A stretch of DNA of 64,000 bases from Bacilli bacterium (GCA_024408235.1 JAKSVF010000002.1:9789-73788); one strand, 5' to 3'; positions 1 through 30,963 are shown, numbered from the stretch's first letter. Notes: a model not told the origin generated them from the sequence alone. Translations and numbers: made by a program.

Positions 1-19
1 GCAGAACGAAGATAAGACA

Positions 20-844
20 ATGACAAGCTATGGCGCTTATTCTCTCTGCTTCCCTTACTACATTGCTGGCAAAGGCTATTACGCAATGGTTTTGGAGTGC
101 CGAAATTCATCAAATACGTGCCAAGGTTTATTAAGACATGGCAAATGTACAATCAACTTCCTTCCATTCACAAAGAAGTCATTCACTGAACACGTTAAGT
201 TAGGATTCCCTGGAGATACACCAGCTGAGAAGATGAAAGACTTCAAGTTCACATCAGTCCCAACCCTTTCTAAGGAATTAGACCCAGAAGGTGATTACCC
301 AGAAATGCTTAAAGAAGCATGTCAGGTATTTGAGTGCACTTGGGTCAAGGAACTCGATAATGCTCAGGATGATAAAATCCAGGAAGAGTATCCAGGACCA
401 TATCACAACTTTAACGGTATTACATCTAAGTTTGGTGCTCACTTCATCTTAAAAATCGATCACATCCTTATGCAGGAAAAGTATTGGGATGCAATTGCTA
501 ACGGAGTCACAAGAAAGAACTTTATGCCAATCCCAACAAACTGGGGTTATAGAGATTCGAAGAACTTCTGGTGTTCAGACTATCAGAAGCCAATCGCTAT
601 CGGAATTCCTGATAGAGGAGTGGATGTTGCATCAGTCAGATACGCTGCTGATAGATTACAGACAGACGTTAAGTTCACAGATGATGCACTCGCAATGCTC
701 GTTAAGGTCCCAAGGCCTTTCTTGAAGCTTGTCTTAAACGGATGCGTTGATTGGGCAAATGAACACAATTGCAAACTCATCACCGAAAAGGAAATGAAAG
801 AAATCAACGATAAGCGTTCAAAAGAGAAGAAAGAGAAAAAATAA
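20..844 (+). CDS. Hypothetical protein, possibly a flavin-reductase-like split-barrel domain protein. The 5' end may lie upstream of the window.
   Basis: ORF of 274 aa. There is no in-frame stop between the window edge and the ATG at 20. The segment AEKMKDFKF..VPT..PEMLKEACQVFECTW...GAHFILKIDHILM resembles the core pattern of flavin-reductase-like domains. The tail is Lys/Glu-rich. A hairpin terminator follows. Confidence 0.45.
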   Translation: MTSYGAYSLCFPYYIAGKGYYAMVLECRNSSNTCQGLLRHGKCTINFLPFTKKSFTEHVKLGFPGDTPAEKMKDFKFTSVPTLSKELDPEGDYPEMLKEACQVFECTWVKELDNAQDDKIQEEYPGPYHNFNGITSKFGAHFILKIDHILMQEKYWDAIANGVTRKNFMPIPTNWGYRDSKNFWCSDYQKPIAIGIPDRGVDVASVRYAADRLQTDVKFTDDALAMLVKVPRPFLKLVLNGCVDWANEHNCKLITEKEMKEINDKRSKEKKEKK

Positions 845-851
845 CCAATTA

Positions 852-874
852 AAGCGGTTTAAACCGCTTTTTTT
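852..874 (+). terminator. Rho-independent terminator
   Basis: AAGCGGTTT/AAACCGCTT hairpin followed by a T7 run, immediately after the stop at 844. Confidence 0.8.
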
Positions 875-903
875 GGAGTTTAAAATAATTGTTGAGGAAA
901 CAT

Positions 904-3900
904 ATGTCTGAAGTAGTTAGTTTATCGCTTAGTTCTTTGCCAAATAAGACCTCGTATATTGAAGGCGATCATTTCGAGCCGTATGGAATGGTTGTGTTGG
1001 CTCATTACAATGATGGATCGGATAGCGTCGTGCCTTTTTACTCAATTAGCCCGAATGGCTCACTCAGAACCAGTGATACTAATGTCGTTGTCTCTGCCTT
1101 CAATTTAGACATAAGTGTGCCAATAACAGTTAGAACCGTCCCGACCTCTGGCTATTTTATCGATGTAAACCTTTCTTCCTCGGAGTATGGCGGCAATCCC
1201 GGAATTAACACAGCCGACGGCTCCATATTCTTCGAATGCTCCGAGATAACGGCTAGGTCTGGTCTGGCCTCTTTTGGAGTGGCAATCTGCTACAATTCGG
1301 GTATGACCGAGGTGGAGAGCGATTTGATAAAGGGACTCCCAAAGGGCTTTAGGACGACACTTCACCAATTCCTCATTCGGGATGGAGTCGATGATAGAGG
1401 CGATTCAACATATAAATATATAGATGACCTCGGATACGTTACGCGGTTCTTTAAGAGCGAGGACGGCTTCTATTATGACGGATGCGGGTTGAGGCTCAGG
1501 CTTGACGTCTACTCCAAAACAATAACAAATCCAATAGGCGACTCTATGTCGTTCGACCATGAGGGAAGGCTGACATCCATCAGGAGTGGGGCGAATCCTT
1601 TGAACGAGAAACTCATTACCTATAATGATGATGGCATCAGGACCGTCTATGACCAAAGATATCCTGATACTTACATAAAATTCTCATACCAGTTTGGATG
1701 GCTCAGGTGGATAAGAGTCTATCAGGATGGATCGCTATCGAGGCTTTACACCCTAATGGGTGTGCCGGGGCAGATATCCTCTATCGAGGAGGAGGCCTCT
1801 GGCCAATCAAGGACAATCTACCAGTTCAGCGTGAATGACAGGAACCTCATAAACAGGTTCGTAGACTGTATGACAAAGGACGCATACAGGTTGACATATG
1901 AGTTCGACACCGCGCTAAACGGCTACAGGTTCTCCTCCGTGAGGAAAGGATACATGGCCGACGGTGGGTTCCAGGAGAGGACCGGGCTGTTCTTCGCGGG
2001 CGCTTATTATAATCATTTGCATGATCGTGTGCTTTTTTCTCAGCTTCTTGTTGAAGATGAGAATGGCGTGATTCTTTCCATCATGTCCGATGACAAAGGG
2101 ATGCCTGTTTCCATATTGGAAAAAGATGCTAATTCGCAAAATGAGTATTACAGCATTAGAAGGGATTCAGGCATATGGCTGGGGGACACCGGAGGTTCTG
2201 GCGATTCAATTAACGGATCGAGGTCGATTTACGTTTGCGGGAATCGCTTTATAGCAAGCGGGCTATCATCTTCGGATCTTGGAGGGAAAAGAAATATTAA
2301 GCTCACTGGGTGGGCCAAGTTAGGTACTTTCAACGAAAAATCCGTCATCGGCGTAAGCGGTTCTGGGCTCGTTGCGGGATTTGTCGAGCTTAACTCATAC
2401 GCCGTGAATACCTGGCAGTATTTTGAGGTGGAGTTGTCGAGAGACTTAAACGACGAAGAGCCGATTCCGTTCAACTCGGTCGTTGTGTCTTCGAGAAATG
2501 GACTTGGACAACCTGTTGGTTGCCAACTTGCAAATCTGTATTTCGACAGATCGACAGGAAAAGAAACAATCTTCTTCTCTAATCACAACAATCCAGTCCA
2601 ATGGCGTGAAATAACCGAACTGAACCTTTGGTCGCAAACATATGGGGCGACATTAATCAATCTCCGGTTGGGTGATAGGGCGCTCAGTGAATCTGATTTC
2701 ATGGAGACCATAATATCATGGCACCTTTCAGGGAATGGTGGCGGGACCTTGTGGTTTTCGCGCGGCCTCCCTATCTCGTTTGAGGATTCTATGCTCTCAG
2801 GGAGTACGGATGGGGATGATTATCTAGGATTCATGGATGGCGATGTGACAAACTCTTCCATAGGGAACGGCAGGGATTGGTTCATAGCGACATCTGTGGA
2901 CGCGGATACAAAGAAGTACTTGATCTTGAGAGAGAATGGATATGAATTTTTAGTAAGGTCGAGAGATGGAGATGGTTACGTTGAGGAGAGATACGAATAT
3001 GATGCGAATAGGCGCCTTACAAGATATGTAAACAAAAAAGGCGGCTCCATCGAGTATGAATATTTCCTTGACGGGACGCTTAAAAAGAAAATTGCGAGGT
3101 GGAATGATGGGTCGGAGAGATCGGCTGTACTGTATCAGTCGGAAATGGACCAAGATGGGAGATTCTTTTCTCGCGAGAGTTCGGCCTCCAGAATCCGCTT
3201 GTATGAACAAAATAATGGGCTTTTGACCAAAACATCATTCCTCAGAGAAACTTTGAATGGTCAAGAAACGATAATGTCAGCAATTGAGTATGGATATGAT
3301 CCATATGGAACCGACATCACGTCTGTCGATTTCCTAGATGGTGAACGAGTTGCAGAGTCTCACTCGTATTCCAGGCCATCTGCCTCCTACAAGACGAACT
3401 ATTATACTGACGGAGTTTCATCACTCAGGGTCTGCAGGGATATCGAGTCCAATTCAGTCAAGGTCGGAGTCATGGGGGATGGAGCATATCGCGATGTTTT
3501 CTCGATGACTTCGGCAAATCTAATCCAGACATCTGTTTTTGACAACGGAACGGGTGACACCGCAAGAAGCGAGGACATAACGAAGGAATTTGACGAATAT
3601 GGCAACCTGAAGGATATCGCCCTTTGTGGGTCTCGAACGGTAGAGTTCCATTACTCAGGCAATTCATCGAGCGAATATGGAGCACTTCTTAGCTCCGTAT
3701 GCGATGGCATTTCTGGCAGAACCATCAATTTCGAACACGATGAGAGCAACCACTTAACCAGGATGAACGATGGAGACGTCGACATTCGCATTTCAGCAGA
3801 CGATGGCGGTGTGGCGGAGGTGAGGTTCCCGGCTGGAGATTCGTATTCATATGCGCTTGGTGAAGAGGGGGCAGCGTCAATTGCGACAGGAACCGCCAAC

Positions 3901-5478
3901 CGTCTTGCGGTATCGTGCTGGCATATCGAGAGGGACCAGCTTATGAGGGTGTCCTCAATAAAGAATCCGAATTATGATGAGAGCCTCAATCACTCATTTG
4001 AGTATTCCTTGGATGACCCGTCATTGATAACTTCGTACGATTTTGGCTCAGGAGCCTATTCGGAGTCGTACTCATACGTATCAGGCAAGATGTCGTCTAG
4101 GACGGCATCGTTCCTCAATTCGTCTTCCGGCGTTACGAGGACGTATTCCTGCCATTATTCATATGATGGGCTTGGCAGGATAATCCATGAAACGAACTCA
4201 AAACTTGGAATTTCAAGAGCATATGTTTACGACCAAAACGGGTATATGACATATTTCGGTGACAACGCAATAGCGTATGACGAATGCGGAAGAGTGTCGT
4301 CTTTTGGTGCCAATTCGTATTCTTATGACAACTACGGTAACAGGGTTTCGAGAAACGGGATGACTTACAGATGGGTCCGCGGGAACGTTCTCTCTGGTGT
4401 GGGTCCTTCTAGCTATTATTACGACTACGGAGGACGTAGAATCACGAAAGTCGACTCGATGAATCGTACCCACCAATACCATTATCTCTTCAATAAGCTG
4501 GTTGGTGAGGACGTTTCGGATGCTTTTGGCGTTGTCAGTAGAATCAGGTATTTTTACGATTCTCTTGGGCCGTGTGCAATGAGGACAATCGACTCTTATG
4601 GCGGGACAATCGACTACATCTACATTAGGAATGCGTCCGGTGACATAACCGGCCTTATGAATCAATTGGGAGTAATTGTCTGTATATATGTGTATGATGC
4701 TTGGGGTTCACATATTGTCTGTGATCGCGAAGGCAATGTGAACACGAGCGGTTCTTTCATCGGCAACGTAAATCCGTTCAGATACAGGGGATATTATTAT
4801 GATGTTGAGACAGGCCTCTACTGGTTATCCTCACGTTATTATGATCCAGAGATAGGAAGATTCATAAGTCCTGATAGTGTGGATTATCTTGATCCAACAA
4901 CTATCAGCGGTCTAAACCTTTATGCGTACTGTAATAACGATCCTATAAATTATTATGATCCTAGCGGACACATTGCGACAGAATTGATTGCAGGTGGTGT
5001 TGCAATATATTACTTGTTAGCTGGACTAGCTATCTTGGTTATTGGAACAGGCATTGTTATTGCTTCTCAAGGTGGATTTAAAAATATATCATTCGATGTG
5101 CCTTTTGAATGGCAAGTCACGTGGGATACTTTTAGTGATAATATTTCCAATGCATGGAATGATATTTCTCATTGGTGGAATGGTTTATTTGACAGAAATA
5201 CTTCGACCTCTTCTATTTCATATGGAACTAGTAATGATGTTGCAATTATGGAATATCAGAGAAAGAAAGCTGCTCCTAGAATTAAATGCAAATCAAGAAA
5301 AGAAGCGAAGCAAAAGGCTTTTTTAAAAGGCGGAAAACGAAAACCGATATTGCATTTTAACGGTCCTCATGGCCCTCATTTTCATCCTGACGACCCTAAA
5401 TTCAAGCATTGGCACTATTATTTTGGATGGTTGCTTTGGATGATGTTAAATGAAGAGGAGGATGAGTATGAATACTGA
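904..5478 (+). CDS. RHS/YD-repeat polymorphic toxin. It has an N-terminal Ig-like module, an RHS shell, a DPxGH core-end motif, and a C-terminal TM helix plus His-rich putative toxin tip.
   Basis: Uninterrupted ORF. I prefer the ATG at 904 (GAGGA at 894-898, 5-nt spacer) over the TTG at 889 in the ORF track. YD repeats include YEYDANRRLTRY, FDEYGNLKDI, YSYDGLGRII, YVYDQNGYMTYF, YSYDNYGNRVSR and YYDYGGRRITKV. The canonical core end is RYYDPEIGRFISPD...YAYCNNDPINYYDPSGH (DPSGH at 4957-4971). No signal peptide or lipobox is present. Confidence 0.9.
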   Translation: MSEVVSLSLSSLPNKTSYIEGDHFEPYGMVVLAHYNDGSDSVVPFYSISPNGSLRTSDTNVVVSAFNLDISVPITVRTVPTSGYFIDVNLSSSEYGGNPGINTADGSIFFECSEITARSGLASFGVAICYNSGMTEVESDLIKGLPKGFRTTLHQFLIRDGVDDRGDSTYKYIDDLGYVTRFFKSEDGFYYDGCGLRLRLDVYSKTITNPIGDSMSFDHEGRLTSIRSGANPLNEKLITYNDDGIRTVYDQRYPDTYIKFSYQFGWLRWIRVYQDGSLSRLYTLMGVPGQISSIEEEASGQSRTIYQFSVNDRNLINRFVDCMTKDAYRLTYEFDTALNGYRFSSVRKGYMADGGFQERTGLFFAGAYYNHLHDRVLFSQLLVEDENGVILSIMSDDKGMPVSILEKDANSQNEYYSIRRDSGIWLGDTGGSGDSINGSRSIYVCGNRFIASGLSSSDLGGKRNIKLTGWAKLGTFNEKSVIGVSGSGLVAGFVELNSYAVNTWQYFEVELSRDLNDEEPIPFNSVVVSSRNGLGQPVGCQLANLYFDRSTGKETIFFSNHNNPVQWREITELNLWSQTYGATLINLRLGDRALSESDFMETIISWHLSGNGGGTLWFSRGLPISFEDSMLSGSTDGDDYLGFMDGDVTNSSIGNGRDWFIATSVDADTKKYLILRENGYEFLVRSRDGDGYVEERYEYDANRRLTRYVNKKGGSIEYEYFLDGTLKKKIARWNDGSERSAVLYQSEMDQDGRFFSRESSASRIRLYEQNNGLLTKTSFLRETLNGQETIMSAIEYGYDPYGTDITSVDFLDGERVAESHSYSRPSASYKTNYYTDGVSSLRVCRDIESNSVKVGVMGDGAYRDVFSMTSANLIQTSVFDNGTGDTARSEDITKEFDEYGNLKDIALCGSRTVEFHYSGNSSSEYGALLSSVCDGISGRTINFEHDESNHLTRMNDGDVDIRISADDGGVAEVRFPAGDSYSYALGEEGAASIATGTANRLAVSCWHIERDQLMRVSSIKNPNYDESLNHSFEYSLDDPSLITSYDFGSGAYSESYSYVSGKMSSRTASFLNSSSGVTRTYSCHYSYDGLGRIIHETNSKLGISRAYVYDQNGYMTYFGDNAIAYDECGRVSSFGANSYSYDNYGNRVSRNGMTYRWVRGNVLSGVGPSSYYYDYGGRRITKVDSMNRTHQYHYLFNKLVGEDVSDAFGVVSRIRYFYDSLGPCAMRTIDSYGGTIDYIYIRNASGDITGLMNQLGVIVCIYVYDAWGSHIVCDREGNVNTSGSFIGNVNPFRYRGYYYDVETGLYWLSSRYYDPEIGRFISPDSVDYLDPTTISGLNLYAYCNNDPINYYDPSGHIATELIAGGVAIYYLLAGLAILVIGTGIVIASQGGFKNISFDVPFEWQVTWDTFSDNISNAWNDISHWWNGLFDRNTSTSSISYGTSNDVAIMEYQRKKAAPRIKCKSRKEAKQKAFLKGGKRKPILHFNGPHGPHFHPDDPKFKHWHYYFGWLLWMMLNEEEDEYEY

Positions 5479-5857
5479 TGATATTATAAGGAAATTCTGT
5501 GATTCTATCATTCTTGATGATAGAAAGGATAGAATGTATTATGAACTAACATCAAGAAAGCAAAAAGGTGTCGATAGATTTGATCACAATGCTGGATGTC
5601 TTATTAAGAAAGAAAAAATAATTCTACACGGTTCTTTGGATGAAATTGTTAAATATTTAAATGTAAATGTGAAACAGGATTCCGTTGTATTTATCGTCGA
5701 TCATTTTAACAAAACAGGAGAATGTCTCACAAAAGAAGAGTTTATTAAAAGACTAAACTCTGAGTATTTGGCTTTAATAGGAATAATATATCCGCATCTT
5801 GCGATAATCAAAGAAGAAAATCACTCAGGGAAATATATATATTTATTGAAAGTTTGA
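5468..5857 (+). CDS. Candidate cognate immunity protein for the RHS tip (small cytoplasmic protein, no recognisable family)
   Basis: The ORF overlaps the RHS 3' end. GAGGAGG at 5455-5461 lies 6 nt before the ATG at 5468, and in-frame ATGs also occur at 5450 and 5462. The product is 129 aa, with no TM segment or signal peptide. The position immediately after a polymorphic-toxin tip is the classic immunity slot. Confidence 0.6.
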   Translation: MNTDDIIRKFCDSIILDDRKDRMYYELTSRKQKGVDRFDHNAGCLIKKEKIILHGSLDEIVKYLNVNVKQDSVVFIVDHFNKTGECLTKEEFIKRLNSEYLALIGIIYPHLAIIKEENHSGKYIYLLKV

Positions 5858-6053
5858 AACGACTAAATGATTATTTGCAGAAAATTTGTCCATAATCCGG
5901 AAGACTAGAAGCAAACGAATATGTTCAACCTGGGTATCCCAATTGCTAAATATACGATGGCACAACCCACTGATGCAGATTGATGCCACTCTTATCTTGT
6001 TTACAAAATATTTGATTAATTTAAAGAAATTTTTGAAAAAATACGAACTTTTG

Positions 6054-6091
6054 ATACCTCTTTTTACCTATTAGGTGAGAGAGGTATTTTT
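6054..6091 (+). terminator. Strong rho-independent terminator that closes the RHS cassette
   Basis: ATACCTCT...AGAGGTAT outer stem with an inner ACCT/AGGT stem, followed by TTTTTAT. Confidence 0.7.
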
Positions 6092-6467
6092 ATATGATAC
6101 TAATTACTTTAAATGACGTTACGTATTGCATTACCAAAGGATCTATAGGAATTGATAAAACATAAGTATGTCTACACTTTAAATTTTTGGATATGGCTAT
6201 CATTCCATGAAATGTACCTTTCCCCAATCAGTCACTTAACTATCAGTCATATTTCCAACTATCGAGAATATATTCAAATGGTTGTACCTGATTTGTGGTA
6301 TCCAGAATCGGCTTAATCCAAGTGGGAAGAAATAAAGCGAGATGGATTCGTAATAGAAACGGGGGATCGGGTAAAAGTATGGTCGTTCTAAATTACAGTC
6401 CTATATTTACCAACGAGCTTAGCGTCTTTCTTTACTAAGCAACGACTCAAAGATGGAAGAAACAAAA

Positions 6468-6494
6468 TTAGCACTCAGTACTTGCGAGTGCTAA
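6468..6494. promoter_or_regulatory. CIRCE operator (HrcA binding site)
   Basis: TTAGCACTC-AGTACTTGC-GAGTGCTAA is a perfect match to the consensus TTAGCACTC-N9-GAGTGCTAA. It lies 47 nt upstream of the clpB ATG. Confidence 0.9.
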
Positions 6495-6509
6495 AATTGA
6501 TACTATAAT
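6482..6509 (+). promoter_or_regulatory. Putative clpB promoter overlapping CIRCE
   Basis: -35-like TTGCGA (6482-6487), 16-nt spacer, perfect -10 TATAAT (6504-6509). AGGAGGT RBS at 6527-6533. Confidence 0.5.
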
Positions 6510-6540
6510 GATGGTGTCGTTATGACAGGAGGTAACTCAT

Positions 6541-8661
6541 ATGCAAATGAATTATGAAAATGATGAGAACATCCTAGAGAAGTTCGGCAGAAATATTAAC
6601 GAAGCATGTAAATCAGGCAAGATTGATCCAGTTATTGGAAGAGATGAAGAAGTTCGTAAAGTCGTGCAGATTCTTGCTAGAAAAACAAAAAACAACGTTA
6701 TTTTACTCGGTGAACCTGGTGTTGGAAAAACCGCCATCGTTGAAGGCTTAGCCCAAAGAATCGTCAACAACGATGTCCCAAATACGTTAAAAGATAAAAC
6801 CATATATGAACTAGATATGGGCGCTTTAATAGCTGGCGCTAAATACCAGGGTGAGTTTGAGGAGCGTTTAAAGAACGTACTCAAAAAAATAAAGGACAGT
6901 GACGGAAAGATCATCCTCTTCATCGATGAGATCCACCTTATCGTCGGAGCGGGAAGGACAAGCGGTGCTCTCGATGCCTCAAACATGCTTAAACCAATGC
7001 TTGCGAGAGGTGAGATTGATTGTATCGGTGCAACCACTCTTAATGAATATAGACAATATATCGAAAAAGATAGAGCACTTGAACGTCGATTCCAGACCGT
7101 TATGATTGGCGAGCCTACAGTCTCTGACACAATCTCCATTTTAAGAGGGCTCAAAGAAAGGTTTGAATCATATCATGGTGTCCAGATAACCGATAACGCA
7201 ATCGTTGCCGCTGCAACATTATCAAATAGATATGTCACAAATAGATTCTTGCCAGACAAAGCTATTGATTTAATCGATGAGGCGTGTGCAGGAATCAAGG
7301 TTGAAGTTGAATCAATGCCAACTGAACTCGATGAGGTTGAGCGTAAGATTAGACAACTTGAAATCGAACGCATCGCTTTAGCAAAGGAGAAAGACGAAGC
7401 ATCTAAAATGAGGCTATTTGATCTTGATAAGGAACTTGAAGGGCTTAAAACCAATAGAGATTCTTTAACCGAGAAGTGGAAGAAAGAAAAAGAAGATATC
7501 AACGAGGCTAAGCGTTTAAAGACCGAACTAGAAAAAGCCAAGTTGGACCTTCAGACATATTTTGGAAACGGCAGCTATGAAAAAGCGTCTAAACTTCAAT
7601 ATCAGACCATCCCTGAACTGGAAGCAAAAATTAAAGAGATCTCCAATAAAGATGAAGGTGAGGCGCGCCTTATTGATGAGGTTGTTGATGAGGAATCAAT
7701 CGCAAAAATCGTTGCAAGAATGACGGGCATTCCTGTGTCCCGCATCGAAAAGGGGGATAGAGAGAAGGTCTTAACTCTTGAAGATACGTTAAAGAGACGT
7801 GTAATCGGGCAAAACGAAGCGATTTCTCTCGTTTCAAATGCAATTCTCCGTCAAAGAGCGGGTATTAAGAATCCAAACAAACCAATTGGTTCATTCTTGT
7901 TCTTAGGTCCAACCGGTGTTGGTAAGACTGAGGTCGCTAAAGCTTTGGCGGAAGCCTTGTTTGATAATGAATCAAACATCATTCGAATTGATATGTCTGA
8001 ATATATGGAGAAATATTCCGTATCTAGACTTATTGGAGCGGCGCCTGGATATGTTGGATATGAAGAGGGCGGACAGTTAACTGAAAAAGTAAGGCGTAAC
8101 CCGTATTCAATCGTCTTGTTTGATGAAATTGAAAAGGCTGACCCTGAAGTGTTCAATCTATTGCTCCAGCTTCTTGATGAGGGTAGATTGACTGATTCAC
8201 AAGGGCATCTCGTCGACTTCAAGAACACAATCATCATCATGACATCGAACCTGGGTTCTGAATTCATGCTGAACGGCGAGAAAGATAAGGTCGATTCCTT
8301 GCTTCACAAAGCGTTTAAGCCAGAGTTCTTGAACCGTATTGATGAAATAGTCTACTTCAATCCGCTTAATCGCTCAGTCCAAAGGTTAATTGTGGATAAG
8401 ATGCTCAAGGATCTTCAAATGAGACTTGCCGAGCAATATTTCATCTTCAATTTTACAGATGATTTAAAAGAAAAAGTCATTCAGGACGCTTATACGCCCG
8501 ACTTTGGAGCTAGACCACTTAAGAGATATATAGAAGACACTGTTGAAACGTATATTGCTAATCTCATCGTGAGACAGCAGGTTAAGCCTAATATCTCATA
8601 CATTGTTGGTGTTAACGGCGAAGGTTTGACATATAAATTCGACACGGCCGCAAACGCATAA
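6541..8661 (+). CDS. clpB: ATP-dependent chaperone/disaggregase ClpB, short form lacking the N-terminal domain
   Basis: There are two AAA+ modules ([15 protein letters not shown]; [15 protein letters not shown]). A long coiled-coil middle domain separates them. The motif [10 protein letters not shown] is present. At 706 aa the protein starts directly at the region preceding NBD1. Confidence 0.95.
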
Positions 8662-23239: not shown

Positions 23240-25882
23240 ATGAATAAAAAGAACACAATATTAAGTTCAATGTTTGCTCTCTTCATGCTCGCTTCCTGTG
23301 GCGGACCTAAGCATTCTTCGGTCAAGCCATCTGGAGAAGAAGAAGAATACAAAGGTGCCAAAGCATCGGGTATCTATAATTTCTCAGGCGAGAGCTATGA
23401 AGAAAAGGCTAAGATTCTCGGACAGCTCGAAGGCTATGCGATGAAACACCACCTTGCAGGCATTCCACTTTATGATGACGCTGGTTACGAGTTGTTCTCA
23501 CCACGTATTCAGTTAGCATCAAACACATATGTTCCTAACTACGGTTTCGGTGTCGGTGAATCCTCACTCAACCCAACAGGAAACATGTTCAACAATCAGC
23601 CTATCGACGCTTCAAAGGTCTCAAACCCAACATATTTCCAGGCGTATGCAACGGAAGATTCAGGTACCTACAACTATTGGAACTCATCAGGTTCTGATGT
23701 CGCTGGTAAGAACGCTATGATTTCATCATCATACTTCTCAACCAGAATGAACGCAGACAAGACAGGTTATGAATGGGAAGGCGAGCTCGCTCGTGTCGAT
23801 GCTCCAATCGCTCTTGACGAAAACGGAAACGAAATCGACTCATCAAAGCCAGGTTTCACATCAAGATTCTGGAGAGTCCCAGTCTACACAGCTGACAACA
23901 GCGGATCTACAGGCAGAAAGTTCGAATACGCACTCTCTGAAAACTCAACACATTACACAAAATACAACGGACGCGGAATTAAACTCGAAGACTATTTAAC
24001 ACCTTTCAAGGTCATGCTCGACAATGGATATTCTCGTGCATCAGGTCTCATCGATGACGCATCTGGCTTCTATGGATGCTCAGACTATCTTTACGCATCA
24101 GACAGAAACAAAGATTGGGGTCCAACAACTAGAACCGCTCCAACTAAGGACGGATCATACTTCAACGGTGTTGGTATCAAACTCAACACAACCGAGAATT
24201 CAGTTGACTTCAAGTTCATCACTCCAATCACTCAGTTCTACGCTAAGTACAACACAGCATCATCTTTATACTCACCTATCCCAATGGATTTCTTAAATGA
24301 AATCGGTATTGCAAACTTTGGTTTAATCGGTAAGTCATCAGATCCATTCAAGAACGTCGACAACCTCATCTCTTGCGGTGCATATATCGTTGATTCTTGG
24401 GAACAGGTCAAAGAAACCGTTTATAAGAAGAACGCAACATACAACAGACAGGATAGAATCAAATTCGAAGGTTATGTCGAAACTGGATACCAGGATGAAG
24501 AAGCGGCATTCCAGGGCTTCTTAAATGGTGTCATCGATGAAATCACAGTTCCATCAAAGCATGTTGCAGAATATGCATCAAACCCTCTTGCTCGTAAGAC
24601 AGAAGGTACAACAGTCATCAAGATCAATGTCAACTCATGCACTCAGAGCCAGTGGGAGAAGTTCTTCGGTAAGAACGGAACAGCAAGCCCACACGCAAGT
24701 GAGAAGACATATTGGGATGTCAAGCCAATCATGTCAAATGACGACTTCCTCAACGGCTTATACTTCGCTATCAACCGTGCTGAGCTCGCTCAGAAGACTG
24801 GACACAACCCAGCATATGGCTACTTATCAAGCGCTTATAAGATCAACCCAGAAGAAGATTTAGCATTCCGTGACACTTCAGCTGGTAAAGCAGTCACAGC
24901 AGAGTACGAAGAAGTTTCCACAAACGGAATCAAGGGTTACTCACCTGCTATGGCTCAGCAGATGTTCGAAAAGGCAATCAAGACTCTCGTCGACGACGGA
25001 ACATACGATGAGGATGAAACAATCACATTGAAGTTCTGGTGGAGAAAAGACGAGGCTCTCAACAACCTTGGCACAACACTTAAAGGTTACATGGAAAAGC
25101 CATTCAATGACGCAGCTGCTAAACTCGGCTACGACATGAAGCTTGTCATCGACAACGCAGTCGCTGGCTCATCCTACACAGACGCATACTCCAAGATGGA
25201 CCAGGGCGAATTCGACTTCGCCGAAGGCGCAATCTCCGGAAACGTCTTAAACCCACTCTCATTCATGTCTGTCATCTGCACAAACAACCTCTCACAGGGA
25301 TTCACAACAAACTGGGGCGATGATACATCATTGGTCACAGCTAACGATCCAGTCATGTACAAGGGAGTTGCATGGTCATACGATGCTCTTCAGGTTGCTG
25401 CAAATGGTGCAGCTGTTGTTGAGCAGGGCCACAACGTTGAACCAATCAAGTCAACAAACCAGCCAACAGACGATGCTTGCTATGTTGATGGCAAGAACGC
25501 AGTCATCGGCTTCGAAGTTCCAGATATCCTTACAGATGAGGGCGAACCTGGAATCAAGTACACAGTCAAGTATGCATGGTTACAGTTCGCTAATGGCGGA
25601 TCAAACCCAGGCTACTATTACAACTATCAGCCAAAAGACTTCGACAAGATTGAACACACAATCGACGGATACTACGTCTTCACTCTAAAGAGTTCGTTGA
25701 TCCAGTCCTACGCTCAGAACATTTCAAATGCTGCTGGCATGGAAATCGATACATTCGTCTTATTGGTCGGATTCGATTGCTTCTTCATTGAGTCAGGTGT
25801 TGAAAAGTCAGTTCAGGCTCAAGTTTCTGTCAAACTTGAACAGATTGGCTGCGAACCTTGCTCACCAGATACCGGAAAATAA
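23240..25882 (+). CDS. oppA: Oligopeptide ABC transporter substrate-binding lipoprotein, enlarged (880 aa)
   Basis: Lipobox FMLAS-C-GG. It has family-5 SBP-like segments. It is the first gene of an oppBCDF cluster. Confidence 0.75.
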   Translation: MNKKNTILSSMFALFMLASCGGPKHSSVKPSGEEEEYKGAKASGIYNFSGESYEEKAKILGQLEGYAMKHHLAGIPLYDDAGYELFSPRIQLASNTYVPNYGFGVGESSLNPTGNMFNNQPIDASKVSNPTYFQAYATEDSGTYNYWNSSGSDVAGKNAMISSSYFSTRMNADKTGYEWEGELARVDAPIALDENGNEIDSSKPGFTSRFWRVPVYTADNSGSTGRKFEYALSENSTHYTKYNGRGIKLEDYLTPFKVMLDNGYSRASGLIDDASGFYGCSDYLYASDRNKDWGPTTRTAPTKDGSYFNGVGIKLNTTENSVDFKFITPITQFYAKYNTASSLYSPIPMDFLNEIGIANFGLIGKSSDPFKNVDNLISCGAYIVDSWEQVKETVYKKNATYNRQDRIKFEGYVETGYQDEEAAFQGFLNGVIDEITVPSKHVAEYASNPLARKTEGTTVIKINVNSCTQSQWEKFFGKNGTASPHASEKTYWDVKPIMSNDDFLNGLYFAINRAELAQKTGHNPAYGYLSSAYKINPEEDLAFRDTSAGKAVTAEYEEVSTNGIKGYSPAMAQQMFEKAIKTLVDDGTYDEDETITLKFWWRKDEALNNLGTTLKGYMEKPFNDAAAKLGYDMKLVIDNAVAGSSYTDAYSKMDQGEFDFAEGAISGNVLNPLSFMSVICTNNLSQGFTTNWGDDTSLVTANDPVMYKGVAWSYDALQVAANGAAVVEQGHNVEPIKSTNQPTDDACYVDGKNAVIGFEVPDILTDEGEPGIKYTVKYAWLQFANGGSNPGYYYNYQPKDFDKIEHTIDGYYVFTLKSSLIQSYAQNISNAAGMEIDTFVLLVGFDCFFIESGVEKSVQAQVSVKLEQIGCEPCSPDTGK

Positions 25883-25898
25883 TCCAAAAAATAGACTA

Positions 25899-25925
25899 GG
25901 GTCGGTAAAACCGGCCCTTTTTCTT
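25899..25925 (+). terminator. Intra-operon terminator/attenuator between oppA and oppB
   Basis: GGGTCGG-TAAAA-CCGGCCC (one G-U pair) followed by TTTTTCTTTC. Confidence 0.7.
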
Positions 25926-25987
25926 TCACTTGCGTACGCATATGTGATATATTCTTCATGGCAAGCTATTTGCTTGAGGGTATTTTT

Positions 25988-27052
25988 ATGTGGAAATATG
26001 TTTTGAAAAGATTGGGGTTATTGTTGATTACAACCTTCATAATCCTGTCGCTCACTTACATTCTTCTCCAGTGCTTACCTGTTGAGGTGCCTAGAGGAAG
26101 TAAGACGGCGATCGTTGAGTTCTACCAGACTCAAGTTGCTCTTGGTTACTACCAGAGAATAGATGAATCAATGGACATCTATAAGAGTTACATCACGGGA
26201 AATCTGACCGCGGACTATAAGTTCGCACCACAGACAGGTTCACCTGTTTTCTATGTCTCACTTCCTGTAATGGTCAGATATTTCAACTGGTTGAAGAATA
26301 TCGTTACTAAGTGGGACTGGGGAACATCAACCCAGATTTCCATTGGACAGTCAGCGATTTCTATCATCATGAGAAAACTTCCTGTTTCAATGAAATTGAA
26401 CATTATCTCAATGATCATCTCCGTTCCATGCGGTATCGGTCTTGGTATTTGGGCTGCATTAAAGAAAAACAAGATGACCGACCATATCATCTCGACTCTT
26501 GTCATGGTCTTTATTTCGGTTCCATCATTCGTCCTTATTTCGTTCTTGCTCATCTGGCTCGCTTACGGAACTGGATTCGTTAACTATCAGTGGCCTACAA
26601 TTCAGCAGGCGCAGAACTGGGTTGTCGCTCTTAAGGGCTACATCATTCCAGTCATGGCGTTGTGTTTCGGCTCAATCGCTGGCTTCGCGCGTTATACACG
26701 TGCAGAACTTTGCGAGGTCATGTCATCCGAGTTCTTGCTTTTAGCTAGAACAAAAGGTCTCACAAGGGGTCAGGCAGTCGTTAAACACGCACTCAGAAAC
26801 TCCATGGTTCCAATTGTTCCTATGATCATCGGTGAATTCGTCGGTATCTTATCCGGTTCCATGATTCTTGAACAGTTATATGGTATCCCAGGTATTGGAT
26901 CACTCTTCGTAACTGCATTAACAACTAAAGACTATTCCGTTGTCATGGTAGATATGGCTATCTACACACTCATCGGATTATTAGCAACACTCGTCGTCGA
27001 CTTATCTTATGGTATTGTCGATCCACGTATCAGAATGGGGGCAAGCAAATAA
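25988..27052 (+). CDS. oppB: Oligopeptide ABC transporter permease
   Basis: The N-terminus MWKYVLKRLGLLLIT is typical of OppB/DppB. The EAA-loop region is LLARTKGLTRGQAVVKHALRNS. GAGGG lies 7 nt before the ATG at 25988, so I prefer that start over 25958. Confidence 0.9.
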   Translation: MWKYVLKRLGLLLITTFIILSLTYILLQCLPVEVPRGSKTAIVEFYQTQVALGYYQRIDESMDIYKSYITGNLTADYKFAPQTGSPVFYVSLPVMVRYFNWLKNIVTKWDWGTSTQISIGQSAISIIMRKLPVSMKLNIISMIISVPCGIGLGIWAALKKNKMTDHIISTLVMVFISVPSFVLISFLLIWLAYGTGFVNYQWPTIQQAQNWVVALKGYIIPVMALCFGSIAGFARYTRAELCEVMSSEFLLLARTKGLTRGQAVVKHALRNSMVPIVPMIIGEFVGILSGSMILEQLYGIPGIGSLFVTALTTKDYSVVMVDMAIYTLIGLLATLVVDLSYGIVDPRIRMGASK

Positions 27053-29307
27053 TGAGTATCAAGAAAACCAAAGCTCAAGAGACCGTTATTGAAAACGTCT
27101 CCGACAGCAAGATCAAATTCGATGCATCAAAAGACTTTGAATACGTCCAGCTTGATTCATCCATCCACGATCAGAAATTCAAAACAAAACCAACAACATT
27201 CTTGAAGGACGCTCTGAAGAGATTCGTCAAGAACAAATCATCGGTTGTCGCAGCATCAATCTTAGGTGTTTTGATCCTTATGGCAATCATCGTTCCTGTC
27301 GCAGACAAGAACAACATCGACGCCAACAACGACATTGCAACATTCCTTCCACCAAAGTGGTTCAACAAATACAACGGTGGCTTCATGGATGGAACTGGCA
27401 AGGTTTCTAATGTTACATTAGACCCAACAACCGGCTATCCTGCAGCGGATGACAATGGCAACTACAAGTACAGAAAAGAAGGTGTCGTTGGAGGAAAAGA
27501 GGCAATCGTTACATCAATCGGTTATGCTGACTCCCCAACAAAAGTCGTTTTGACCTATGGCCAAGGCGGAACAGTATCATTAACAACAGATAAGGATCAC
27601 ACATCGGACACTTACATCGTCTCAGTACCGTTCCAGCTTGATTTAAGCGCAAATTATGACGTTTCATTCAAGCTTAACAAGGATTATTGCGAAGGTGAGG
27701 GTAACTATCCTGAATATTCATTCTGCGTTTTCTCTGACCAGAAGACAAAAGATGGCACAGGCATATTCCCAATCACCCCATTATCAACCGAATACGATGA
27801 AATTAGCGTTTCTGATTTGTCCGCTAAGATTCAGGCTGATCCAAACTACTCCTCATCAAACACATTTGAAAACGCATCAATCGGTTTCCTTTTAAAAGGA
27901 AATGTTGATGATATCAAGAAAACCTTATACATATCATCTATCGACATTAAGAAAGATGGCGCGCCTGTCACTTATATCGATTCAGAAACATCAGAAGTCA
28001 AGAACATCGGTTTCTTGGATGCAACAAAGGGCTATAGCTCATGGAAACAGTTCTACAGCTTAGTCGATTCAACAGTCGGCCTTTATCACTCAGAAATTGC
28101 AGTCGGCGCATTCACATACGATTATTATGCGGCTGCATATTGCAACGATGAGTCAGATTTCACTGAATCAGATTTAGATAAGTTCTTTGAACTCGGCTAT
28201 CTTGAAGTTCCATATGAGTGGTATAAAGTCGGCGCTTCTTCAGTGTCTAAATTCCCTGGAGATGTCAAGACTCCAGCAGTCTACTACACACAGGAAGAAT
28301 GCGATGCATTCAATGCGCAATACGGATTGTCCTTAGGCGATTATGGATATAAGACAACCTCTGACATCAAGGAAGAGGAAGTTCTCTACACATCATCTGA
28401 GTTATATCAGATCGCTGGAGAATATTGGGTCATCGACACTCTTGAAGTCGCCCCTCTTAAATTAACGGAAAAAGGCGAAAGAATGTGCCCAGCTGAAAAG
28501 GCATTAAGCGTCACGATGAACAAGTTCGGTTCATTCGAATCAAAATCCCTTACCTGTGAGAGAAGCCGCTACAAATACTTCTATTACATGGGTTACACAT
28601 CATCTTGCTCAAAGATTAACTATATCTTCGGCACAGATTCTCAGGGACATGACTTCTTCAAGGTCGTATTCGCTGGTCTTCTCACATCTCTTGAGTTAGG
28701 TATCCTCGCATCTGTCATCAACATCGTTATCGGTGTTGTCTGGGGCGCAATCTCAGGTTACTTTGGCGGATGGGTAGACGTCTTGATGGAGCGTTTCTGT
28801 GAAATCTTAGGCGGTATGCCATTCATCGTTCTCATGACACTCATCGTCTTACTCTTCGGCAAGTCGAACTTCTGGATCTTCTTGTTCTGCTTATGCTTAA
28901 CAGGATGGATGGGCACAGCTCATGTCACGCGTTCACAGTTCTATCGTTATAGAGGCCGTGAATATGTCCTTGCTTCAAGAACATTAGGCGCAAGCGACTG
29001 GAGACTTATCTTCCTCCACATCCTCCCAAACGGCATCGGAACAATTGTTACTTCAGCAGTCTTAATGATTCCTGGAGTCATCTTCTCAGAAGCTTCAATC
29101 TCCTACTTATTACCTGGCGCTCTCTCATTCCAGGGAGCTACATCCTTCGGTTTGACACTCTCAACCGCACAGGGATTCATCCAGTTATATCCATACATGA
29201 TCGTTTCATCATCAATCGTCATGTCACTCATCATGATTTGCTTCAACCTCTTCGGTAACGGCTTACGTGATGCATTCAACCCAACAACGAAAGGAGCGGC
29301 AATCTAA
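27052..29307 (+). CDS. oppC: Oligopeptide ABC transporter permease with a ~450-aa extracytoplasmic insertion
   Basis: ATGA overlap with oppB. An N-terminal TM helix is followed by a long hydrophilic domain. The canonical OppC core follows (ASRTLGASDWRLIFLHILPN). Confidence 0.85.
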   Translation: MSIKKTKAQETVIENVSDSKIKFDASKDFEYVQLDSSIHDQKFKTKPTTFLKDALKRFVKNKSSVVAASILGVLILMAIIVPVADKNNIDANNDIATFLPPKWFNKYNGGFMDGTGKVSNVTLDPTTGYPAADDNGNYKYRKEGVVGGKEAIVTSIGYADSPTKVVLTYGQGGTVSLTTDKDHTSDTYIVSVPFQLDLSANYDVSFKLNKDYCEGEGNYPEYSFCVFSDQKTKDGTGIFPITPLSTEYDEISVSDLSAKIQADPNYSSSNTFENASIGFLLKGNVDDIKKTLYISSIDIKKDGAPVTYIDSETSEVKNIGFLDATKGYSSWKQFYSLVDSTVGLYHSEIAVGAFTYDYYAAAYCNDESDFTESDLDKFFELGYLEVPYEWYKVGASSVSKFPGDVKTPAVYYTQEECDAFNAQYGLSLGDYGYKTTSDIKEEEVLYTSSELYQIAGEYWVIDTLEVAPLKLTEKGERMCPAEKALSVTMNKFGSFESKSLTCERSRYKYFYYMGYTSSCSKINYIFGTDSQGHDFFKVVFAGLLTSLELGILASVINIVIGVVWGAISGYFGGWVDVLMERFCEILGGMPFIVLMTLIVLLFGKSNFWIFLFCLCLTGWMGTAHVTRSQFYRYRGREYVLASRTLGASDWRLIFLHILPNGIGTIVTSAVLMIPGVIFSEASISYLLPGALSFQGATSFGLTLSTAQGFIQLYPYMIVSSSIVMSLIMICFNLFGNGLRDAFNPTTKGAAI

Positions 29308-30962
29308 TGGAAAACGCAAAGAAAGCTGTGGGAACAATTGATTACCCATATACAGTCGGTCCAGTTCCAGAAGGAAAAGACGTTGTCCTTTCAGTCAGAA
29401 ACTTAGCAATCAGCTTCGCAACAGATGATGGCTTTGTAAAAGCTGTCCGTGGTGTTGCATTCGACTTATATAAAGGCGAGACCTTATGTATCGTCGGCGA
29501 ATCTGGTTCAGGCAAATCCGTCACATCAAAGACAATCATGGGCATCCTTGCCGGAAACGCTCACATCGACTCCGGTGAAGTTACATACGAAGGCGAAGAT
29601 TTAACAAAGATCGCTGAGGATGAATTCCACCGTATCCGTGGTACTAAGATCGGCATGATCTTCCAGGACCCATTGTCATCACTTAACCCAATCAAGAAGA
29701 TTGGAAAACAGATTACCGAGGTTATGATCACCAACGGTAACAAGGTTAAGAAGATGTATGACAACATCATCAATGCAGAACTCATCAAATTGAAGAACGA
29801 CCAGAGACTTCTTCACCTTGCAAAGGATGAGATTTCATTCAAGAAAAAAGACAAGAACTCAACACCTGAGGACATCCAGAAGGCTGTTGATTTCTACAAC
29901 TCAGAAAAAATCAGATTAACCCCTATCATCGCTGCGGATAAAGTTGCTTTAGCCGCAAAGAAGAAAGAAGCAAAGAAGGCGACAGATGAATTCGTTAAGA
30001 CCGTTAAAGCTCGTCACAAAGAGAAAAAAGCGGCATTAAACGAAAACGTGAAAGCCGCAAAAGAGGCATATAAGGTTGCAATTGCTGAGGAAAACGCAAG
30101 ATTTGATAAAGAATTAGCTGAAATCAGCGCAAATCCAAATAATCTCCGCGAAATGGAGCTCTTAAACGCAAAAGACGTCGCAAAAGGCAATCATATTTAC
30201 AACCTCGGCTTAATCAAGGCTGAATTCCAGCCAAAGATTGACCAGTTCGCAAACTTCATCTCTGAAAGAAGACGCTACATCTCCGAACTCAAAGTCACAA
30301 ACAAAGAGGCAAAGAGAAGAGCGCTCAAGATCATGGCTGAAGTCGGTATCCCATATCCAGAGAGAAGATACGACCAGTATCCATTTGAATTCTCTGGAGG
30401 TATGAGACAGCGTATCGTCATCGCTATCGCTTTGACAGCTGACCCAGATGTCCTTATCTGCGATGAGCCAACAACAGCTTTAGACGTCACAATCCAGGCT
30501 CAGATCCTTGAACTTATCAACAGACTCAAAGTCGCAAGAAACATGTCAGTCATGTTCATCACTCATGACTTAGGCGTCGTCGCTAATATGGCGGATAGAG
30601 TCGTCGTCATGTACGCGGGTAAGATTGTTGAATATGGAACCGCGCAGGATATCTTCTATTCACCTGCTCACCCATACACATGGGCACTCTTATCATCCAT
30701 CCCAGACGTTGATTCCAAGGAAAAACTTGAAGCAATCCCTGGAACCCCGCCAAACATGCTCTTCCCACCGGAAGGAGACGCATTCGCACTCCGTTCTAAA
30801 TACGCCTTAGGAATCGACTTCAAAGAAGAACCAAAGATGTATCAGATTTCAGATACTCATTACGCATCAACATGGTTGCTCGACGAAAGAGCGCCTGAGG
30901 CAACTATGCCAAAGATCGTCTCAACACGTATTGAGAACTCACTAAGAAAGGCAGGTAAGTAA
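29307..30962 (+). CDS. oppD: Oligopeptide ABC transporter ATPase with a ~170-190-aa Lys/Ala-rich insertion
   Basis: Walker A GESGSGKS, Q-loop MIFQDP, signature FSGGMRQR, Walker B LICDEPTTALD. The long helical insertion lies between the Q-loop and the signature motif. Confidence 0.9.
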   Translation: MENAKKAVGTIDYPYTVGPVPEGKDVVLSVRNLAISFATDDGFVKAVRGVAFDLYKGETLCIVGESGSGKSVTSKTIMGILAGNAHIDSGEVTYEGEDLTKIAEDEFHRIRGTKIGMIFQDPLSSLNPIKKIGKQITEVMITNGNKVKKMYDNIINAELIKLKNDQRLLHLAKDEISFKKKDKNSTPEDIQKAVDFYNSEKIRLTPIIAADKVALAAKKKEAKKATDEFVKTVKARHKEKKAALNENVKAAKEAYKVAIAEENARFDKELAEISANPNNLREMELLNAKDVAKGNHIYNLGLIKAEFQPKIDQFANFISERRRYISELKVTNKEAKRRALKIMAEVGIPYPERRYDQYPFEFSGGMRQRIVIAIALTADPDVLICDEPTTALDVTIQAQILELINRLKVARNMSVMFITHDLGVVANMADRVVVMYAGKIVEYGTAQDIFYSPAHPYTWALLSSIPDVDSKEKLEAIPGTPPNMLFPPEGDAFALRSKYALGIDFKEEPKMYQISDTHYASTWLLDERAPEATMPKIVSTRIENSLRKAGK

Positions 30963-30963
30963 T

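Follow-up and report, generated by a model that had tools for sequence, protein, structure and literature searches.

How very large toxins that lack a signal peptide leave the producing cell is only now being worked out: The RHS-containing Tc toxins, which are leaderless, are set free by lysis of the type X secretion system (T10SS)/holin type (PMC10847048), and the large clostridial toxins TcdA and TcdB of C. difficile, leaderless as well, are released through TcdE (PMC12150058). Among teneurin-like proteins (TLPs), which mostly bear SPI or SPII signals, some have no signal peptide and "may utilize alternative mechanisms" (PMC13018210), a remark that makes leaderless cages an already acknowledged open problem. 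Here, we describe such a cage from an uncultured member of the Bacilli. The stretch of DNA analysed, hereafter the window, comprises 64,000 nt of 'Bacilli bacterium' (GCA_024408235.1, JAKSVF010000002.1:9789-73788) and contains, on the plus strand, an RHS polymorphic toxin gene (904..5478) with a small gene overlapping its 3′ end. Judged from sequence, the two genes form a functional toxin/immunity cassette, and the RHS protein belongs to a small, distinct leaderless clade of uncultured, small-genome gut and rumen Bacilli.

The assignment to the RHS proteins, made in a preliminary description of this DNA, is borne out by profile searches. RHS_repeat is matched in Pfam (E = 1.1e-7), many YD-type columns being invariant in the family alignment, and Rhs_assc_core (TIGR03696, NCBIfam, E = 3.4e-23) covers residues 1264-1356 (4693..4971, + strand), terminating in ...YAYCNNDPINYYDPSGH. 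This core harbours the aspartyl autoprotease motifs R1311, ...SPD1324 and ...D1352-P-S-G-H1356, of which R1311, D1324, D1352, P1353 and G1355 are invariant across the family alignment. The bipartite DPxG aspartyl-protease motif is thus present at the toxin junction, and autocleavage is predicted. The gene itself starts at ATG 904 and encodes 1524 aa in a reading frame that is intact throughout (the listed open reading frame, ORF, spans 889..5478); a Shine-Dalgarno (SD) sequence, GAGGA (894..898, + strand), was recognised by inspection 5 nt 5′ of the start, and RHS relatives show an equivalent arrangement of SD and ATG. An in-frame TAA at 886-888 rules out a longer N-terminus. Given this stop and a start that is conserved in all full-length relatives, we rejected 5′ truncation or a misassigned start. 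In line with the preliminary description, the RHS gene and the small overlapping ORF lie between two terminators, both of which fold well: upstream an intrinsic-terminator-like hairpin (845..877, + strand; core stem 851-870; RNA fold of 845-876, -16.4 kcal/mol, then U7), which terminates the preceding flavin-reductase-like gene (20-844), and downstream a hairpin followed by U5 (6053..6093, + strand; stem 6053-6088; -17.9 kcal/mol). Compared with its ortholog on a syntenic contig of 'Bacillales bacterium UBA1744' (L001), the RHS body has a dN/dS of 0.19 at a dS of 0.11, indicative of purifying selection, and the Ig segment described below a dN/dS of 0.07. We therefore read the gene as a genuine, selectively maintained toxin-in-a-cage accompanied by an antidote gene.

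By hydropathy and sequence inspection, the N-terminus contains neither a Sec signal peptide nor a Cys lipobox: The first 70 residues reach a maximum Kyte-Doolittle hydropathy of 0.57 (15-residue window), and the first ten include no Lys or Arg and one acidic residue. Nor did Pfam and NCBIfam searches at permissive thresholds detect an LXG, PAAR, WXG or MuF domain in the RHS protein, so that the earlier statement that signal peptide, lipobox, LXG and PAAR are all missing stands. The protein begins, again as previously proposed, with an Ig-like domain (residues 1-85; 904..1158, + strand). Starting at residue 4, this domain scores 22.0 bits against Big_3 (PF07523; gathering cut-off, 21.2) when the N-terminal 161 residues are scanned alone, while the match is weak in a whole-protein Pfam scan. 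AlphaFold2 (AF2) renders residues 1-78 as a beta-sandwich (strands 4-77, pLDDT ~80) that is all-beta from residue 4.

This leaderless state is shared by relatives. A homolog search yielded one relative of 94% identity and five of ~39%, to which the Ig segment is ~50% identical (whole-protein value, 38%). All six open with M-[SA]-[DE]-[VL]..PNKT[ST]Y, that is, straight into the first Ig strand, and one variant has two Ig domains. An N-terminal hydrophobic segment was found in none of 12 close members, including proteins encoded in the fetched loci. With a HMMER profile of residues 1-700, we retrieved ~25 further RHS relatives, some Ig-first, some with two to three Ig domains, some lengthened at the N-terminus by 180-340 aa and others Ig-less and shell-first; 16 of the 17 wider RHS-type relatives that were scored are leaderless. 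In contrast, the same profile also retrieves thousands of multi-Big_3 proteins, and 97 of 133 non-RHS matches (73%) carry classical signal peptides, as do most outgroup RHS proteins from the homolog search. Since the leaderless state is conserved clade-wide, at 17 loci without a common partner, it represents a real biological property rather than an artefact of annotation or truncation. Five of the extended relatives (P0075, P0081, P0109, P0107 and P0202) share a similar short, highly charged N-terminal helix (MKNQEKIKEILERIRSKK, MTKDEIKELFEKIKSKR and MDKNKLQEYIKKLRMK, among others), followed by a beta-rich domain of ~150 aa that belongs to no family and then by the Ig domain. Charged helix and beta-rich domain could be a targeting element that has gone unrecognised.

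Could a dedicated partner be encoded nearby? Our search for secretion partners covered the 40 annotated ORFs of the window and 17 family loci. Pfam revealed no family belonging to type VI (T6SS) or type VII (T7SS) secretion systems, Tc toxins, holins or extracellular contractile injection systems (eCIS) among the window ORFs, which upholds the previous claim that no T6SS, T7SS or Tc partner occurs within 64 kb; PAAR, VgrG and Eag/EagR are likewise absent from these ORFs, and a TcA-like gene from the window. Neither the window nor the family loci contain ess genes, and no small helical, WXG100-like ORF lies upstream at 12 loci. All-versus-all ORF clustering, performed on nine loci first and then on 17+ loci (four short ones contributed by a metagenome scan), identified no partner gene that recurs across the 17 loci beyond same-species synteny and the variable immunity ORF. 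The flanks of family loci hold the ATP synthase operon, EF-Tu, ClpB and sugar-utilisation genes. Neither the RHS protein nor its immunity ORF nor the gene preceding the cassette matched a PADLOC model, and IMG/VR viral contigs contained no RHS relatives. Carriage by a phage or an eCIS thus found no support, and a fold search among viral proteins likewise brought up nothing beyond generic Ig- or tail-fibre-like matches with low TM-scores. The only candidate release factor adjoining any family member is a 109-aa ORF with one transmembrane helix (L013:2035-2364), 14 nt upstream of the gene for P0109, a leaderless RHS relative. Nearly along its full length, the ORF resembles a PHROG holin family (E = 4e-4) and Pfam Holin_LLH (E = 1.6e-3), and it has no tblastn homolog in the window or at the other loci.

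Behind the Ig domain, residues 86-424 (1159..2175, + strand) make up the shell/plug start (GINTADGSIFF...ICYNSGM) and the first YD repeats. Residues 86-165 correspond to the usual Rhs shell start, with a resemblance by eye to the DUF6531-type N-terminal motif, and the YD repeats set in at ~165. AF2 models this region poorly when the rest of the shell is left out, and a model of residues 1-700 attained a mean pLDDT of 59. Foldseek placed Rhs, Tc and teneurin/TLP shells at the top for the latter, at TM-scores below 0.2; because of the poor model, this search is uninformative beyond a shell-like fold. The shell is interrupted by a family-specific insert (residues 425-668; 2176..2907, + strand), in which AF2 predicts a beta-sandwich reminiscent of carbohydrate-binding modules (CBMs) and galactose-binding domains, plus a helix-containing subdomain. 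Modelled alone, the insert adopts a jelly-roll beta-sandwich (pLDDT 69), and its Foldseek neighbours (probability ~1.0, E ~1e-3) are RBD1 of C. difficile CDTb (9mui_A, TMt 0.51), iota Ib, CBM16, CBM61, MAM and BoNT Hc, while Pfam and PDB contain no sequence match. The predicted resemblance to receptor-binding or carbohydrate-binding modules is suggestive, not proof. Scans of the whole protein and its segments against Pfam, NCBIfam, PHROGs and PADLOC (E up to 10) returned Big_3, RHS_repeat and Rhs_assc_core and nothing else, hence no known trafficking domain.

Right behind DPSGH, where cleavage is predicted, the toxin tip opens with a transmembrane-like hydrophobic helix (residues 1357-1388; 4972..5067, + strand), the sole such segment of the RHS protein; then come a linker and a basic His-rich toxin module of ~57 aa (residues ~1451-1507; 5254..5424, + strand; RKKAAPRIKCKSRKEAKQKAFLKGGKRKPILHFNGPHGPHFHPDDPKFKHWHYYF). 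The variable tip is the only place where any of the 12 family members has transmembrane-like segments. In most members, a hydrophobic segment starts just a few residues behind the core end, the tips being otherwise unrelated. Four His and one Trp of the module are invariant (H1492, H1494, H1502, W1503 and H1504). All 15 database homologs of the module are short ORFs. Ten of these were read, and those that keep their N-terminal context open with RHS core-end sequence and have a transmembrane helix before the module; no other trafficking domain was seen in the ten. A metal-dependent activity of the tip on the cytoplasmic side, for example as a nuclease, would be a guess only.

The cognate immunity gene (5468..5857, + strand) encodes 129 aa with no transmembrane helix or signal. 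The small overlapping ORF of the preliminary description is thus real. Its most likely start is ATG 5468 rather than ATG 5450, with an SD, AGGAGG (5456-5461), 6 nt upstream and homologs that share the N-terminal residues MN...; the overlap with the RHS gene then measures 11 nt. Two independent carriers of the His-rich module, both orphan ORFs made of core end and tip, are followed immediately by an ORF of 128-137 aa that aligns with 5468-5857 from end to end (pairwise E = 2e-7 and 2e-8). As immunity homologs thus lie directly 3′ of other module carriers, the toxin/immunity pairing is established. The immunity ORF belongs to no Pfam, PADLOC or PHROG family. The presence of an immunity gene suggests bacteria as the likely targets, in contrast to Tc toxins. 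Where relatives have multi-transmembrane Gly-zipper tips, the ORF that follows encodes a membrane protein or a lipoprotein; here, the product is soluble. Three loci (L018:6001-7094, L020:6001-6944 and L021:2803-3746) contain orphan ORFs of 181-225 aa that consist of RHS core end, transmembrane helix and His-rich toxin, each with a cognate immunity homolog and devoid of an RHS body; those of L020 and L021 are located near serine recombinase and transposase genes. Such orphans probably serve as reservoirs for tip replacement. The gap at 5858-6540 of the window holds no orphan toxin or immunity remnants.

Tip and immunity gene have evidently been replaced. Relative to L001, positions 4-4950 of the window are 93.9% identical (blastn), and the next match is only a 145-bp block at 5971-6115 (95% identity), which encloses the downstream terminator. 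Between these conserved flanks, toxin tip and immunity gene (4950..5970, + strand) form a swapped module unrelated to L001. The left breakpoint, nt 4950, corresponds to approximately residue 1349, within NNDPINYYDPSGH. In the comparison of family proteins, identity falls from ~57% to below 10% after DPSGH. The module is compositionally foreign: GC content amounts to 36.6% in the tip (28% at third codon positions, GC3) and 28.5% in the immunity gene (GC3 22%), as compared to 46.2% in the RHS body (GC3 51%). Tip and immunity gene have thus been exchanged together, through recombination exactly at the core end. The RHS gene as a whole has travelled, too. Its body shows a dS of 0.11 (904-4950 versus L001 10001-14047) as opposed to 1.76 for clpB (6541-8661 versus L001 16248-18368), which implies that the RHS gene, along with the upstream flavin-reductase-like gene, was exchanged between the lineages long after their housekeeping genes had diverged. 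Neighbouring lipoprotein genes are merely 67-73% identical in nucleotide sequence between the window and UBA1744.

Several further observations concern the turnover of family loci. Between RHS cassette and clpB, UBA1744 carries a PIN-domain toxin and a small antitoxin (L001:15473-16143), whereas the matching site of the window (6116-6466) consists of ~350 nt of unrelated, AT-rich and apparently non-coding sequence. Two stubs, L017:4017-4349 (residues 1-87) and L009:10001-10189 (residues 1-46), retain the N-terminal Ig segment of the family only, and the position of the former is occupied by a full RHS and immunity cassette in the syntenic locus L005. These stubs look like deletion scars and point to presence/absence polymorphism. 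Several genomes have two RHS genes of the family no more than 6-10 kb apart (L011, L012, L016 and L013:7912-16092). Downstream, L013 contains an array of ~12 small ORFs, and C-terminal fragments of RHS proteins group with four of these, as is typical of orphan toxin/immunity arrays.

How, then, might the toxin reach its target? With Sec, lipoprotein, LXG and PAAR signals missing from the clade and no partner in cis, an exit route that is Sec-independent and not encoded by neighbouring genes is probable. The explanation of the whole that we consider, on balance, the probable one is as follows. The shell would fold in the cytoplasm of the producer, around the autocleaved, hydrophobic tip. The cage would then exit upon lysis or holin-type permeabilisation of a subpopulation of cells, the route with the best precedent, and one at which the holin-like ORF of L013 hints for this clade. 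Outside the cell, the Ig and CBM-like modules may bind a surface ligand of a related target cell, whereupon the transmembrane helix of the tip would enter the membrane of the target and bring the basic His-rich module across to the cytoplasmic side. In kin cells, the soluble immunity protein would neutralise the toxin module.

A number of points weigh against this scenario. The export step is one that we infer. Neither a holin nor an endolysin was found in the window or at 16 of the 17 loci, and the single holin match, at L013, falls below the Pfam gathering cut-off. The similarity of the shell insert to CBMs is weak (E ~1e-3, TM-scores of 0.4-0.5 on small targets, pLDDT 69), and the His-rich module has no sequence match in Pfam or PDB by single-sequence or profile searches. 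Finally, just 26 nt separate the upstream terminator from ATG 904, a gap in which a promoter is hard to place.

We have weighed this lysis-based release against several other explanations. A dedicated secretion system could be encoded elsewhere in the genome, most plausibly a type VIIb system (T7SSb) that reads an N-terminal feature, namely Big_3 or, in relatives, the charged helix. The precedent is LrhA, which links an Rhs toxin to T7SSb in Bacillota (PMC10327511); several wider relatives do have an N-terminal charged helix (such as MKNQEKIKEILERIRSKK and MTKDEIKELFEKIKSKR), the Ig segment is strongly conserved, and of the genome our system searches covered 64 kb. However, recognition of the LrhA type requires a helical N-terminus, WXG100-like partners and adjacency to essC (PMC10327511), while here an LXG or helical N-terminal domain is missing, just three residues precede the first Ig strand, small WXG100-like genes are lacking upstream in 12 loci and neither essC nor another ess gene is nearby. 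We thus regard this route as unlikely, if worth taking seriously. The preliminary description had gone further and raised the prospect of an undescribed delivery mode. Given the holin and lysis precedents (PMC10847048, PMC12150058) and the holin-like ORF upstream of one relative, such a mode is not established. In its fullest form, it would be a new, Sec-independent and apparatus-poor delivery mode in small-genome, possibly wall-less gut Bacilli, with the Big_3-first N-terminus (in relatives, the charged helix) as trafficking determinant, the post-cleavage transmembrane helix driving transfer across a single target membrane and the His-rich module being a new metal-binding toxin fold; we consider this combination rather improbable. 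The toxin might also not be released at all, but be displayed or transferred by direct membrane contact between adjacent, possibly wall-less cells, through fusion, nanotube-like contacts or vesicles; the post-core transmembrane helix or a surface-bound shell would mediate such transfer. This would suit a protein whose sole hydrophobic elements are transmembrane-like segments, which most of the 12 members have immediately behind the cleavage site, as well as the many tips that are multi-transmembrane Gly-zipper membrane proteins paired with membrane immunity ORFs, and a host with small-genome, lipoprotein-rich, Mollicutes-like traits. A C-terminal transmembrane helix is, however, unable to translocate a pre-folded N-terminal shell of ~150 kDa, and the structures solved for RHS, Tc and TLP proteins have their tip inside the shell (PMC13018210), which makes contact-dependent transfer quite unlikely.

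Two readings dispense with delivery altogether. One holds that the cassette is an intracellular toxin-antitoxin, addiction or abortive-infection module that is never exported. Export signal and secretion partner are indeed both absent, toxin and antidote gene are tightly coupled and have no further companion, a PIN toxin-antitoxin pair adjoins the cassette in L001, and orphan toxin/immunity modules occur beside recombinase and transposase genes. Yet there was no PADLOC defence match and no relative on viral contigs; extracellular-type modules (Big_3 and the CBM-like insert) are kept under purifying selection, and Big_3 is elsewhere found mainly on signal-peptide proteins; and polymorphic tips, combined with orphan immunity-like ORFs in arrays (L013, L010), are the hallmark of intercellular competition. 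An exclusively intracellular role therefore strikes us as highly improbable. The other reading takes the gene to be a 5′-truncated or decaying remnant of a formerly signal-bearing RHS gene with no present function, to which the truncated 5′ stubs of family genes at L009 and L017 and the occurrence of orphan tip modules could lend some colour. Against it stand the intact frame of 1524 codons with its good SD, the identical start in every full-length relative, invariant catalytic residues, the dN/dS of 0.19 and the position of the directly upstream in-frame stop, 3′ of a terminator. Such decay is scarcely conceivable, and a pseudogene is essentially excluded.

The host was described as coming from a Mollicutes-like lineage, and part of this picture has held up. 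A perfect CIRCE repeat, TTAGCACTC-N9-GAGTGCTAA (6468-6494), precedes the clpB gene (6541-8661), and a -10-like TATAAT is also present upstream of it. The encoded ClpB is short (706 aa), and as its 120 top homologs, those with names coming from Bacilli/Firmicutes metagenome-assembled genomes (MAGs), measure 700-722 aa without exception, this is a lineage-wide trait. Some of these homologs reside on contigs of 1.0-1.6 Mb, and a lipoprotein-rich neighbourhood completes the similarity. These traits would suit a small genome and a lifestyle like that of Mollicutes, but a Mollicutes-like lineage is not established. RF2 is encoded alongside RF1, implying that UGA is a stop codon, and the taxonomic labels read only Bacilli: All named relatives are MAGs labelled 'Bacilli bacterium', obtained from the rumen, the omasum or the faeces of horses. 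Window genes comprise housekeeping functions (SecA, RF1, RF2, UvrB, DnaX and RecR, among others), the Opp system, YfhO and many lipobox proteins without a family; at least eight neighbouring proteins have a lipobox, consistent with the earlier notion of lipobox-bearing exported neighbours. The Opp operon (23240-32055) stands out, as noted before, by the size of its products (OppA, 880 aa; OppC, 751 aa; OppD, 551 aa). OppC has ~450 extra residues between its N-terminal transmembrane domain and the permease domain, and a large insertion in OppD is implied by an ABC match that extends over residues 48-390. Two adjacent Peptidase_M6-like ORFs of the immune inhibitor A type (32749-34275, with a lipobox, and 34169-35821) overlap by ~107 nt. 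Either a miscalled start in one of two tandem paralogs or a frameshift within a single gene could account for this.

What does this clade add? It offers a compact, two-gene and chromosomally scattered example of a very large leaderless toxin in uncultured gut and rumen Bacilli that are abundant. The missing signal is clearly an evolved, conserved trait, and it sets the clade apart from the Sec-exported proteins in which this Ig module normally occurs. The CBM-like insert in the shell may act as a receptor-binding module, and a toxin tip that opens with a transmembrane helix emerges as a recurring design. Should export follow a new route, the repertoire of polymorphic toxins would gain a delivery mode; a lysis-based route would extend the altruistic-release model to commensal Bacilli.

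Among described systems, WapA of Bacillus subtilis and Streptococcus suis comes close: Both are stand-alone chromosomal genes of monoderms that encode adhesion-type N-terminal modules, an RHS shell, a core-end autoprotease and a polymorphic tip, followed by an immunity gene. WapA, however, has a cleavable Sec signal and wall-binding repeats, neither of which occurs in this clade, whereas the CBM-like shell insert and the tip headed by a transmembrane helix are features of the latter. LrhA of Listeria (PMC10327511) resembles our protein in being an Rhs toxin of Bacillota that is leaderless, similar in size (1656 aa) and followed by an immunity gene, but its helical N-terminus, the three small WXG100-like genes and the essC8 gene immediately upstream have no counterpart here. 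Rhs effectors of the T6SS (PAAR- or prePAAR-Rhs, for instance RhsA, Tre23-Rhs 7pq5 and 8qja) share the predicted shell fold, the core-end autoprotease and the swapping of tip and immunity gene, and in both cases transmembrane helices are putative aids to membrane translocation. In these effectors, the prePAAR helices are N-terminal and depend on Eag chaperones, while here the helix heads the C-terminal tip; PAAR, VgrG and a T6SS are missing, and a T6SS is not expected in monoderm Bacilli.

The BC cocoons of Tc toxins (TcB-TcC, such as YenTc and TcdB2-TccC3) are leaderless RHS cages enclosing an autocleaved toxin as well, and 5kis and 6h6g are among our best Foldseek shell matches. They differ from the present cassette in that SpvB, TcdB_mid_N and beta-propeller domains are absent from our protein, a TcA partner from the window and a lysis cassette from the window and 16 of the 17 loci; SpvB, TcdB_toxin_midN and beta-propeller domains do occur in the distant matches P0034, P0039 and P0047. 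TLPs (BiTLP, PDB 9ifo; PMC13018210) share the YD shell, N-terminal bacterial Ig-like domains, a polymorphic C-terminal domain of ~15 kDa and an adjacent immunity gene, and Pfam TEN_YD-shell is recorded on RHS relatives. An NHL beta-propeller, FN-plug or TIP domain was not detected in our protein, which has the mid-shell beta-sandwich insert instead. In a literature search, we found no paper that combines Big_3 with Rhs. The protein thus shows all testable features of RHS polymorphic toxins and, as far as its domains and gene context indicate, falls outside the WapA, T6SS, T7SSb, Tc and TLP subclasses. New is, in our view, a distinct leaderless, Big_3-first RHS clade that combines a CBM-like insert in its shell with a transmembrane-first tip and a new toxin/immunity family.

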